From NCBI RefSeq assembly GCF_044647545.1, contig NZ_CP172818.1: a stretch of DNA of 64,000 nt; one strand, written 5' to 3'. The position numbers and the translations under genes were made by a program. The stretch is from Escherichia coli (GTDB lineage: Bacteria > Pseudomonadota > Gammaproteobacteria > Enterobacterales > Enterobacteriaceae). The notes beneath the pieces are model-generated. The model was not told the DNA's origin. It saw only the letters and a list, made by a program, of their open reading frames with translations, and ran no database searches. Below, one piece after another: positions 26,377 to 46,305 of the stretch (positions within the stretch are counted from its first letter, which is position 1; each line of letters starts with the position of its first letter).

Positions 26377-28512
26377 TTACTCGCCCTGTTCAGCAGCCGG
26401 AGCTTCCGGTGCTGCAGCAGGTTGAGACTGCTCAGTCGCTTCTTTAATGCTCAGACGGATACGGCCCTGGCGATCAACTTCCAGAACTTTCACCGGTACT
26501 TCCTGACCCATCTGCAGGTAATCGGTCACTTTCTCAACGCGTTTGTCAGCGATCTGAGAGATGTGTACCAGACCTTCTTTACCGCCGCCGATGGCAACAA
26601 ATGCGCCAAAGTCAACGATACGGGTCACTTTACCATTGTAGACGCGGCCCACTTCGATTTCTGCAGTGATCTCTTCGATACGACGAATAGCATGTTTCGC
26701 TTTCTCGCCGTCGGTCGCTGCGATTTTCACAGTACCGTCATCTTCGATTTCGATGGTGGTGCCAGTTTCTTCGGTCAGAGCACGGATAACAGAACCGCCT
26801 TTACCGATAACGTCTTTGATCTTGTCCGGGTTGATCTTGATGGTATGGATACGCGGAGCGAACTCAGAGATATCGCCGCGCGGCGCGTTGATCGCCTGTT
26901 CCATTACGCCCAGGATATGCAGACGCGCACCTTTAGCCTGGTTCAGTGCAACCTGCATGATCTCTTTGGTGATACCTTCAATTTTGATATCCATCTGCAA
27001 TGCAGAGATACCGTCGCGGGAACCCGCAACTTTGAAGTCCATATCGCCCAGGTGATCTTCGTCGCCCAAAATGTCAGACAGTACAACGTAGTTGTCGCCT
27101 TCTTTCACCAGACCCATTGCGATACCCGCAACAGCAGCTTTGATCGGCACACCTGCGTCCATCAGCGCCAGAGACGCGCCGCACACGGAAGCCATAGAAG
27201 AAGAACCGTTGGATTCGGTGATTTCAGACACCACACGTACGGTGTACGGGAATTTGTCCATATCCGGCATGACTGCCAGCACGCCGCGCTTCGCCAGACG
27301 ACCGTGACCAATTTCACGACGCTTCGGAGAACCGACCATGCCGGTTTCGCCTACGGAGTACGGAGGGAAGTTGTAGTGGAACAGGAAGGTGTCAGTACGT
27401 TCGCCCATCAGTTCATCAAGAACTTGCGCGTCACGTGCAGTACCCAGCGTTGCGGTAACCAGCGCCTGAGTTTCACCACGGGTGAAAAGCGCAGAACCGT
27501 GAGTACGCGGCAGCACGCCAGTACGCACATCCAGACCACGAATCATATCTTTTTCACGACCGTCGATACGCGGTTCGCCTGCCAGTACGCGGCTACGAAC
27601 AACGTTTTTCTCGATAGCGTGCAGAATTTCACCCAGTTCGTTTTCGTCCAGGGTTTCATCTTCAGCAAGCAGCGTCGCGATGGTTTCAGATTTGATGACA
27701 TCAACCTGCGCATAACGCTCTTGTTTGTCGGTGATGCGGTAAGCATCGCTCAGACGAGCTTCAGCCAGTGCAGCAACGCGCGCGTTCAGCGCTTCGTTTA
27801 CCGGCTCCGGCTGCCAGTCCCAACGCGGTTTACCGGCTTCTTTCACCAGTTCATTGATGTTCTGAATAACAACCTGCTGTTGTTCATGACCGAACACTAC
27901 TGCGCCCAGCATCTGGTCTTCGCTCAGCAGTTCAGCTTCAGATTCAACCATCAGTACAGCTGCTTCAGTACCCGCAACAACCAGATCCAGTTTGCTCTCT
28001 TTCAGCTCGTCCTGAGTCGGGTTCAGTACGTACTGGTCATTGATGTAACCTACGCGGGCAGCACCAATCGGACCATTGAACGGAATACCAGACAGAGACA
28101 GTGCTGCGGAAGCACCAATCATCGCGACGATATCCGGGTTAACTTGCGGGTTAACAGAAACCACGGTGGCGATAACCTGAACTTCGTTGACGAAGCCTTC
28201 CGGGAACAGCGGGCGAATCGGGCGGTCAATCAGACGCGCGATCAGGGTTTCGCCTTCGCTTGGGCGGCCTTCACGACGGAAGAAGCTACCCGGGATACGA
28301 CCAGCAGCGTAGGTACGCTCCTGATAGTTAACGGTCAGTGGGAAGAAGTCCTGACCTGGTTTGGCTTTTTTCTGGCCAACAACGGTAACGAATACCGCGG
28401 TGTCATCCATGCTAACCATAACAGCGGCAGTAGCCTGACGAGCCATCATGCCGGTTTCCAGAGTCACGGTGTGTTGGCCGTACTGGAATTTACGAACGAT
28501 CGGATTAAGCAA
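26377..28512 (-). CDS. pnp: Polynucleotide phosphorylase (PNPase)
   Basis: 711 aa from the UUG start (ttgcttaatccg = M-L-N-P); the track ORF begins 29 codons upstream. Confidence 0.92.
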
Positions 28513-28559
28513 TGTAATATCCTTTCTCTTTCTTAGACAGTACCTTACGGCACTGGTGT

Positions 28560-28745
28560 TAATACCCGATCTTCTGCGCATCCTCGCGACTAATGACAAC
28601 CCTAACCCAGCCCAATGTGGGTAAAGCCTCTCATTAGCCGCGCGAACCTCTGCAACGGAAGATCATTCATAGCAACAATACATTAGTTTCCAGTGAATTG
28701 CTGCCGTCAGCTTGAAAAAAGGGGCCACTCAGGCCCCCTTTTCTG
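28560..28745 (+). ncRNA. psrO: PsrO (SraG) small RNA, approximate boundaries
   Basis: Recalled position of SraG in the rpsO-pnp intergenic region, opposite strand to both genes; no independent sequence signature verified. Confidence 0.35.
28713..28745 (-). terminator. rpsO Rho-independent terminator
   Basis: gaaaaaaggggccactcaggccccctttt hairpin 14 nt downstream of the rpsO stop. Confidence 0.7.
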
Positions 28746-28758
28746 AAACTCGCAAGAA

Positions 28759-29124
<366 letters not shown>

Positions 29125-29176
29125 TTAAGCGGCAGTATTCTACTCGTAGCGACCTGTTATCGCAAGACGGTTAACA

Positions 29177-30121
29177 TTACGCCGGGTATTCAACCACCAG
29201 GCGACGAGGCGCGACGCGGCCTTCATCGTCAATTTCGCCCATACCGATAAACTTGCCGTTCTCACCCTCTGTAACGCGAACCAGTCCTTCCAGCGGCGCA
29301 CCGGATGTACGAACCGGGTTACCATTTTTGAAGTAAACAGAAGACGTTAACGGAAGATTCACCACCGGGTAGTCCGAAGCTGGACTGTCCATTGGCATCA
29401 GTAATGGATCAAGTAACTCCGCAGCCGGAATATCCTGCTGTTCGGCTTGCTCAACCAGTTCACGCAGATGTTCCAGGGTCACCATCCGTTCAACCGGATA
29501 TTTACTTACCGCCAGACGACGCAAGTAAATAACATGCGCGCCACAACCGAGTTTTTCGCCGAGATCGTCAATGATAGTGCGGATATAAGTGCCTTTTGAG
29601 CAGTGAATTTCCAGCTCCAGCTCATTGCCTTCATGGCGAATAAACAGCAATTCATAAACGGTAATCGGGCGCGCTTCACGTGGAACTTCAATGCCCTGAC
29701 GCGCGTATTCGTACAGTTTTTTGCCCTGATATTTCAGTGCTGAATACATCGAAGGGATCTGTTCGATATCGCCACGGAAGGTATCCAGCGCCGCCGCCAG
29801 TTGCTCTGCACTAAAGGTTACCGGACGTTCTTCAACGATTTGTCCGTCGGCATCAGAAGTATCGGTACGCTGCCCAAGACGCGCAATGACCCGATAGCGT
29901 TTGTCGGAGTCCAGCAGATACTGGGAAAACTTCGTCGCTTCCCCGAGGCAAATTGGCAACATGCCGGTCGCCAGCGGGTCCAGCGCACCGGTATGCCCGG
30001 CACGGTTGGCGTTATAAATCCGTTTCACTTTTTGCAGCGCATCGTTGCTGGACATCCCCTGCGGTTTATCCAGCAACAAAACGCCGTTAATGTCGCGACC
30101 GCGACGACGAGGACGACTCAT
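29177..30121 (-). CDS. truB: TruB tRNA pseudouridine-55 synthase
   Basis: 314-aa ORF. Confidence 0.93.
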
Positions 30122-30597: not shown

Positions 30598-30672
30598 TGG
30601 CCTGATAAGACGCGCCAGCGTCGCATCAGGCAATCCATGCCGGATGCGGCGTAAACGCCTTATCCCGCATGG
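30598..30672. repeat. REP elements in the infB-rbfA spacer
   Basis: gcctgataagacgcgccagcgtcgcatcaggc and gccggatgcggcgtaaacgccttatcccgcatgg. Confidence 0.7.
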
Positions 30673-35350: not shown

Positions 35351-35410
35351 GCCCACCCCCAAGACATAAAAAAAGGGCCTAAAGCCCAGTTATTCTGTAG
35401 TCAGATAACA

Positions 35411-35434
35411 AAAAACCCCGATAAATCGGGGCTT
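35411..35434 (-). terminator. Hairpin with T-run between metY and rimP (attenuator/terminator)
   Basis: Minus strand agccccgatttatcggggtttttt. Confidence 0.55.
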
Positions 35435-35556
35435 TATATAACTGAACCCTATAACCGCAACTGCGGTCTGGAGCACTTTCCAGAAGGATTTTTTCAAATC
35501 CCACTACGAAGGCCGAAGTCTTCACAGTATATTTGAAAAAGGACTCTAAGGGAAAG

Positions 35557-35633
<77 letters not shown>

Positions 35634-39413: not shown

Positions 39414-39500
39414 TGGTACCGAGGACGGGACTTGAACCCGTAAGCCCTATTGGGCACTACCACCTCAAGGTAGCGTGTCTACCAATTCCACCACCTCGGC
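39414..39500 (-). tRNA. leuU: tRNA-Leu (anticodon GAG)
   Basis: Minus-strand 87-nt sequence gccgaggtggtggaattggtagacacgctaccttgaggtggtagtgcccaatagggcttacgggttcaagtcccgtcctcggtacca. Confidence 0.95.
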
Positions 39501-46057: not shown

Positions 46058-46305
46058 TTGTTATACCTCTTGAATATTCCTGATGGGGCAAGTCTTCACC
46101 CACCCCGGCTGTTCGGCCTGCCCGGCATAACTCCTCACCGGGACCAGAAGCAAAAAAAATACCGACCCGGGTACAGGTCCCAGGTCAGCTACAATTCACA
46201 TTTTGATAGTCATTTTACCCTGAAGTTCCCGAAGGGTCATCGTTTACTTTATAGGGCGTTGCGCCGTAGTATGACGGCTCGATTCCAGGTTGTTAGCGCG
46301 AGATT

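Follow-up and report, generated by a model that had tools for sequence, protein, structure and literature searches.

The rpsO-pnp intergenic control region of an Escherichia coli chromosome and its antisense RNA SraG

The window analysed here is a stretch of 64,000 nucleotides from contig NZ_CP172818.1 of Escherichia coli. Near its middle, rpsO and pnp lie one after the other on the minus strand, with a spacer at 28513-28758 between them (Table 1). The pnp start codon is TTG (28512-28510) and the rpsO stop codon is at 28759-28761. The spacer is therefore 246 bp long, equal to MG1655 3311169-3311414, and not 247 bp as had been claimed at first. It contains a two-way terminator, a pnp leader hairpin cut by RNase III and the antisense RNA SraG, for which PsrO is a published synonym. 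All of this content is well studied and already known in detail. Upstream of rpsO, outside the spacer, the S15 autoregulatory leader was matched by its Rfam model well above the gathering threshold.

Table 1. Features of the rpsO-pnp region in window coordinates
Feature	Position	Strand	Basis
pnp CDS (polynucleotide phosphorylase, 711 aa)	26377-28512	-	ORF list and MG1655 annotation mapped by offset
SraG promoter region	28490-28520	+	identical to K-12; hexamers placed provisionally from the sequence
pnp Shine-Dalgarno AGGA, 7 nt upstream of TTG	28520-28523	-	sequence
SraG (PsrO) primary transcript, 216 nt, antisense to pnp leader	28527-28742	+	MG1655 b4449 mapped
Small predicted hairpin between RNase III hairpin and ribosome-binding site	28538-28555	-	minimum-energy fold; poorly conserved between genera
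Long imperfect pnp leader hairpin, RNase III site 'R'	28568-28664	-	fold, covariation, literature cleavage
Rfam RF00082-matched part of SraG, older shorter form (published 174 nt)	28571-28742	+	full model 1-177
pnp promoter P2: probable start at about 28667-28671 and conserved -10 region block TAATGTATTGTTG	28667-28686	-	derived in two ways
Bidirectional intrinsic terminator (rpsO T1 and sraG T), core stem-loop 28721-28737	28715-28743	both	terminator scan and fold
rpsO CDS (ribosomal protein S15, 89 aa)	28759-29028	-	ORF list and annotation
S15 autoregulatory leader, upstream of rpsO	28972-29086	-	Rfam RF00114, 117.6 bits (gathering 39.5)

The region was compared with K-12 MG1655 3308500-3312500. 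The two are collinear and without indels, and a window coordinate equals the MG1655 coordinate minus 3282656. The present strain is not K-12 itself, since 65 positions differ over these 4 kb, most of them in coding sequence. Within the spacer, 244 of 246 bases are identical to K-12. The only differences, relative to K-12, are at 28612 (T to C) and 28614 (T to A); both sit in the apical loop of the leader hairpin, and they have no predicted effect on the structure. No position between 28102 and 28612 differs from K-12, and thus the SraG promoter, its +1 and the 5' 42 nt of the RNA are identical. The region is also very uniform in the species: an 801-bp query around the spacer was found at 99% identity or more in 5411 of 5425 complete E. 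coli genomes, and at 100% in many of them.

The terminator at the rpsO end of the spacer is symmetric. Its core, GGGGCC-ACTCA-GGCCCC, is preceded by six A's (28715-28720) and followed by CTTTT (28738-28742). Read on the minus strand it is GGGGCC-TGAGT-GGCCCC followed by TTTTTT, and the stem starts 22 nt past the rpsO stop codon. Read on the plus strand it is a 6-bp all-GC stem followed by CTTTT, a T-run shorter than that of the minus strand. The minimum-energy fold widens the pairing to 28715-28743. An rpsO terminator hairpin had been predicted at 28713-28745, and this range encloses both the core called by the terminator scan and the full folded pairing. T1 and the SraG terminator have been described as one bidirectional terminator (Fontaine et al. 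2016, PMC5029454). Thus, rpsO and SraG both end at one common hairpin.

The symmetric form, A(n)GGGGCC...GGCCCCT(n), is present at most of the Enterobacterales loci that we fetched, a statement meant qualitatively only. The perfect-stem search for T-runs beside the terminator pulled A and T runs into the stem, and therefore counts based on a run of at least five T's understate how widespread the symmetric terminator is. Loci from Erwinia, Pantoea and Tatumella (for example L024, L054 and L078) have spacers of about 300-318 bp, and their Rfam SraG match begins about 65 nt further from rpsO. In these three genera a GGGGCC terminator near the rpsO stop codon was not found by simple stem search. 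The longer spacer, the shifted match and the lack of a nearby GGGGCC terminator together point to an extra segment after rpsO.

On the pnp side, the spacer RNA of the minus strand is strongly structured. The 246-nt RNA folds at -96.1 kcal/mol, while 200 shuffled sequences gave -70.0 ± 4.6 kcal/mol and none of them was as good (z = -5.71). The fold is dominated by the long leader hairpin, which has its apical loop at 28610-28617 and on its own gives -47.6 kcal/mol. The expectation of a long structured pnp 5' leader was thus borne out, with the hairpin running from 28664 to 28568. In K-12, RNase III cuts this hairpin on both arms, at +39 and +77 of the P2 transcript (PMC5029454), in agreement with the proposal that the leader is the target of RNase III autoregulation. 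After RNase III cleavage, the processed 5' end is degraded by PNPase and RNase E attack follows; CsrA represses translation of the processed transcript (PMC5029454). One site for CsrA overlaps with the Shine-Dalgarno of pnp (PMC5029454). The AGGA also contains a GGA motif, of the kind bound by CsrA, and the CsrA site of the literature is probably this motif at 28520-28523. A further hairpin, which overlaps the P2 region, is predicted at 28671-28705 on the minus strand, where it separates the terminator from the RNase III hairpin. It could form only in rpsO read-through transcripts, and its 5' arm is only moderately conserved.

The start of the P2 transcript was placed in two ways. The published in vitro RNA, which runs from +1 to nt 79 of the ORF, is 234 nt long (PMC5029454), which gives a 155-nt leader and a start at 28667. 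When the RNase III cuts at +39 and +77 are set on the predicted fold, opposed on the stem, the start falls at 28670-28671. The two derivations differ by about 4 nt, and the P2 start is thus probably at about 28667-28671. The -10 block of P2 is 70-90% conserved among the Enterobacterales loci.

SraG lies on the other strand. The RefSeq ncRNA sraG (b4449; MG1655 3311183-3311398, plus strand) maps without indels, and 214 of its 216 bases are identical. The Rfam model RF00082 gave 162.2 bits on the plus strand (gathering 50, E = 1.5e-29) and 20 bits on the minus strand. Both the annotation and the RF00082 match are on the plus strand, opposite to rpsO and pnp, and the original prediction was therefore right to place PsrO/SraG there; the mapping that it had suggested puts b4449 at 28527-28742 with two substitutions. 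The primary transcript was defined in K-12 by circular RT-PCR as 216 nt, starting 42 nt upstream of the older 174-nt form (PMC5029454). RF00082 does not include this 5' extension, which is 44 nt in our coordinates (28527-28570) and 42 nt as published. The RNA starts at 28527 (a T), 4 nt from the pnp ribosome-binding site (AGGA, 28523-28520). It overlaps about 141-145 nt of P2 transcripts and, over all of its 216 nt, the read-through rpsO-pnp transcripts. Its own fold is less exceptional than that of the minus-strand spacer RNA (z = -3.54 vs -5.71). In K-12 strains N3433 and MG1655 the plus-strand RNA, of about 216 or 190 nt, has been shown by Northern blot and circular RT-PCR (PMC5029454), and SraG is probably expressed in the present strain as well, judging by its near-identity to K-12.

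The transcription start of SraG and the effect of a -10 mutation have been shown experimentally in K-12 (PMC5029454). The -10 is likely to be TGTAAT/TAATAT at about 28513-28520, with the pnp start codon on one side and the ribosome-binding site of pnp on the other, and a weak -35-like TTACGA may lie at about 28490-28495, inside pnp codons. The SraG promoter overlies the pnp start codon, and therefore the unit reaches slightly to the left of the boundary that was drawn for it originally. A consensus promoter scan over 28050-29200 called neither P2 nor the SraG promoter and reported only one candidate, at 29165-29137 upstream of rpsO. Because it missed both, the scan is uninformative for these weak promoters. 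P2 and the SraG promoter are below its threshold, and their assignment therefore rests on the K-12 experiments.

The interval is thus very likely (probability about 0.93) the E. coli rpsO-pnp intergenic control region, arranged as in K-12. The three interleaved transcripts that had been predicted here match the arrangement described by Fontaine et al. 2016 (PMC5029454), RNase III hairpin included. The transcription starts, the cleavages and the regulatory effects come from experiments in K-12; given the sequence identity, they would be expected to hold for the present strain.

The effects of SraG on pnp have been studied in K-12. With full-length SraG, pnp mRNA is less abundant and its half-life shorter, an effect not seen with the form that lacks the first 42 nt (PMC5029454). 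Similarly, the 30S toe-print on pnp RNA is abolished by full-length SraG and not by the short form (PMC5029454). The 5' end of SraG pairs close to the pnp Shine-Dalgarno and not over it, and the SraG-pnp duplex gains a new RNase III site near the pnp 5' end (PMC5029454). SraG itself is cut by RNase III at the mirror positions and is more abundant when RNase III, RNase E or PNPase is missing (PMC5029454). The reported effects are small: overexpression of SraG has an effect of about 2-fold, and a -10 mutation that removes SraG raises pnp mRNA and PNPase 1.3-fold (PMC5029454).

Based on these data, the region probably works as follows. On the minus strand, rpsO transcription would either stop at T1 (28715-28743) or read through into pnp, and pnp would also be transcribed from the second promoter, P2, with a start at about 28667-28671. 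Whether from read-through or from P2, the pnp RNA would carry the hairpin 28664-28568, which RNase III would cut on both arms. PNPase would then remove the small 5' fragment that is still paired to the processed pnp leader. Once this fragment is gone, CsrA could repress and RNase E attack the leader, and PNPase would therefore control its own level. On the plus strand, the weak promoter over the pnp start codon would begin the 216-nt SraG at 28527, and SraG would end at the rpsO terminator hairpin, read in the opposite direction. SraG matches the P2 leader with perfect complementarity over about 141-145 nt, and the read-through RNA over all of its 216 nt; its 5' end would pair 4 nt from the ribosome-binding site. 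Its pairing would block 30S binding and make an extra RNase III site, and PNPase would be modestly lower. We infer this mechanism for the present strain from its identity to K-12 in the promoter, in the start and in every stem.

A scan for the S15 protein with one genome per species gave 80 Enterobacterales loci, and in 79 of them rpsO is followed by pnp. These 79 loci and the window made up a set of 80 spacers, 239-366 bp long. All 80 have a TTG start codon for pnp, and the leader hairpin is present in all 80. Conservation is very high in the terminator, in the block around P2 and in both hairpin arms; it is low in the apical part of the hairpin and in the sequence that separates the hairpin from the ribosome-binding site. 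Of the core arms of the hairpin, the 19-nt one is exact in 65 of the 80 loci and the 20-nt one in 64. In an alignment of 73 distinct sequences, 96.8% of the cells hold standard pairs, and sliding the partners by one to three columns lowers pairing to 36-53%. The upper stem has eight pairs with compensatory changes (3.4 expected) and 50 double-change cells (8.1 expected); for neither value was any of 500 shuffles as high.

Several observations were made at the hairpin loop of single loci. In Serratia sp. DD3 (L055), an insertion of about 125 nt lies exactly in the apical loop and folds as a long extension of the stem; it may be akin to a miniature repeat of the ERIC/IRU type, which it resembles. 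Smaller insertions in the apical loop are present in Dickeya oryzae (L032), Budvicia and one more locus (L060 and L065, respectively). It seems that the loop can accommodate insertions, whereas the core stem does not vary.

The two strands are not equivalent with respect to this hairpin. In each of the 80 species the pnp strand forms the more stable version, with a mean difference of 16.7 kcal/mol and with the caveat that the species are related and the counts are not independent. G-U pairs average 5.5 in the pnp-strand hairpin and 0.6 in its SraG-strand counterpart, and several nearly invariant ones of the pnp strand become C-A mismatches in SraG. Because the bias has the same direction in all 80, it is the pnp leader whose structure is under selection, and the hairpin of SraG is a weaker mirror image of it. 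This strand bias also favours another view of the RNA. In this view, every conserved element of the spacer (terminator, P2, RNase III hairpin, ribosome-binding site) would serve rpsO and pnp in cis, and SraG might be a low-level antisense by-product of the AT-rich stretch by the pnp start and of the symmetric terminator, with little or no selected function; what Rfam calls SraG would then in effect follow the pnp leader in mirror image. The promoter data point the same way. The -10 of E. coli SraG is not conserved, TAATAT being present in 26 of the 80 loci and TGTAAT in 6. Of 20 genera that were sampled, 19 gave an Rfam SraG match, in every case on the opposite strand from rpsO; an RNA-seq study of Dickeya nevertheless did not detect PsrO/SraG (PMC6735904). 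In addition, the K-12 promoter mutant shifts PNPase by only the 1.3-fold mentioned above, and no phenotype was found (PMC5029454).

However, the SraG of K-12 is a real RNA with a defined start and a promoter that can be mutated, and its effects (loss of the toe-print, less pnp mRNA and a shorter half-life) need its 5' 42 nt (PMC5029454). The amount of SraG also changes upon temperature shifts and in the stringent response (PMC5029454). Moreover, the complementarity between a cis-antisense RNA and its target stays perfect however the sequence changes, and therefore the low conservation of the 5' part is no argument against a function of SraG. On balance, we regard it as rather unlikely that SraG is a by-product with hardly any function. 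Among the alternatives this one carries the most weight, and it does not affect the identity of the locus.

The comparison bears on how RF00082 is to be read elsewhere. The model is made up of hairpin and terminator, two elements whose conservation is accounted for by pnp and rpsO; the E. coli -10 is not general, and the RNA was undetected in Dickeya. Thus, a family match in another genus is not in itself evidence that the RNA is made. We tentatively suggest that what is selected across the Enterobacterales is the pnp-leader hairpin and the symmetric terminator, and that the Rfam SraG family is largely their mirror image. Functional antisense RNA would then occur only where a usable -10 adjoins the pnp start, as in Escherichia, Salmonella and Citrobacter. 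We offer this as a possibility, and one that we would sooner doubt than adopt.

SraG might also act mainly in trans on distant mRNAs, with its effect on pnp being secondary. SraG binds Hfq in vitro with a Kd of 0.49 nM and co-precipitates with it (PMC5029454), and it is among the ProQ-associated RNAs of Salmonella (PMC5391140). Deletion of hfq, however, alters neither the level of SraG nor its effect on pnp (PMC5029454). In Yersinia pseudotuberculosis, SraG has been reported to repress the YPK_1206-1205 operon, but this operon has no homologues outside Yersinia (PMC5029454). When SraG was overexpressed in E. coli, none of 10 candidates, predicted or derived from arrays, changed, and total protein labelling was unchanged (PMC5029454). 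A mainly trans-acting SraG is thus quite improbable, and antisense action on the pnp leader is the reading that we keep for E. coli.

We also considered whether RNA from either strand of the spacer encodes a small protein. Short ORFs are present at 28615-28686 on the plus strand (23 aa) and at 28602-28670 (22 aa) and 28663-28728 (21 aa) on the minus strand, and the ATG of the second lies at about the P2 start. That ATG, at 28670, is absent in many genera, in which the aligned triplet is AGG, GTG or another. Both loop differences from K-12 would change residues (in one in-frame reading, checked by eye), and the variation in the upper stem tracks base pairing and not codons. As the start codons are not conserved and the variation follows pairing, we rejected small-protein coding in the spacer, which we consider extremely unlikely.

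Other Rfam matches were found in the window. They include a greA leader (46154-46275), a rimP leader (35368-35468) and two tRNA genes (35560-35633 and 39417-39500), all on the minus strand, and these are expected content of this region of the E. coli chromosome. Between rbfA and infB, the model naRNA4 (nucleoid-associated RNA 4, derived from REP sequences) matched at 30599-30669 on the minus strand with 77 bits. Among the genomes sampled for the comparison, Affinibrenneria salicis has two truB-rpsO-pnp copies (L021 and L022) on one scaffold, NZ_VYKJ01000001.1, at 394245-397511 (reversed) and 677618-680884. The copies are about 283 kb apart, in opposite orientation, and identical over all 3267 bases. 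Two origins come into question, a large inverted duplication and an assembly artefact.

The locus is a textbook case of layered post-transcriptional control of a major exoribonuclease, and the analysis brings no new biology. Beyond the cited literature, it adds that, in all of the 80 loci sampled, the pnp strand forms a markedly more stable hairpin than the SraG strand, that the core arms of the hairpin are almost invariant and that the SraG promoter of E. coli is not conserved. The strand bias and the unconserved promoter bear on how the Rfam SraG family should be interpreted in other genera.

Among known systems, the closest is the sraG locus of E. coli K-12 (b4449, synonym psrO; Argaman et al. 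2001; Fontaine et al. 2016, PMC5029454). The locus, the gene order and the strands are all the same, the SraG promoter, start and terminator are identical, and so are the stems of the RNase III hairpin; the two apical-loop substitutions of the present strain (28612 and 28614) set it apart. The Rfam family RF00082 is matched over its full length (1-177) on the correct strand, with the long hairpin and the terminator stem included. However, the model begins at the older 5' end (28571) and lacks the extension that is essential for the regulation of pnp (PMC5029454). Small RNAs at or opposite pnpA are also known from other bacteria. RliD of Listeria monocytogenes and ref41 of Enterococcus faecalis lie in the rpsO-pnpA region and are in this respect similar to SraG (PMC5029454). 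They have no notable sequence similarity to it, and the regulation of pnp was unstudied in those species according to the same paper (PMC5029454).

In mode of action, SraG resembles GadY on gadX-gadW and AsflhD on flhD in E. coli. In these cases too, an antisense transcript of the other strand forms a perfect duplex with an mRNA leader or junction, and a new RNase III substrate arises. SraG would differ from these two in that the pnp leader has an RNase III hairpin of its own and in that SraG also blocks ribosome binding. Since the leader already holds such a hairpin, SraG would add a layer to an existing autoregulatory loop.
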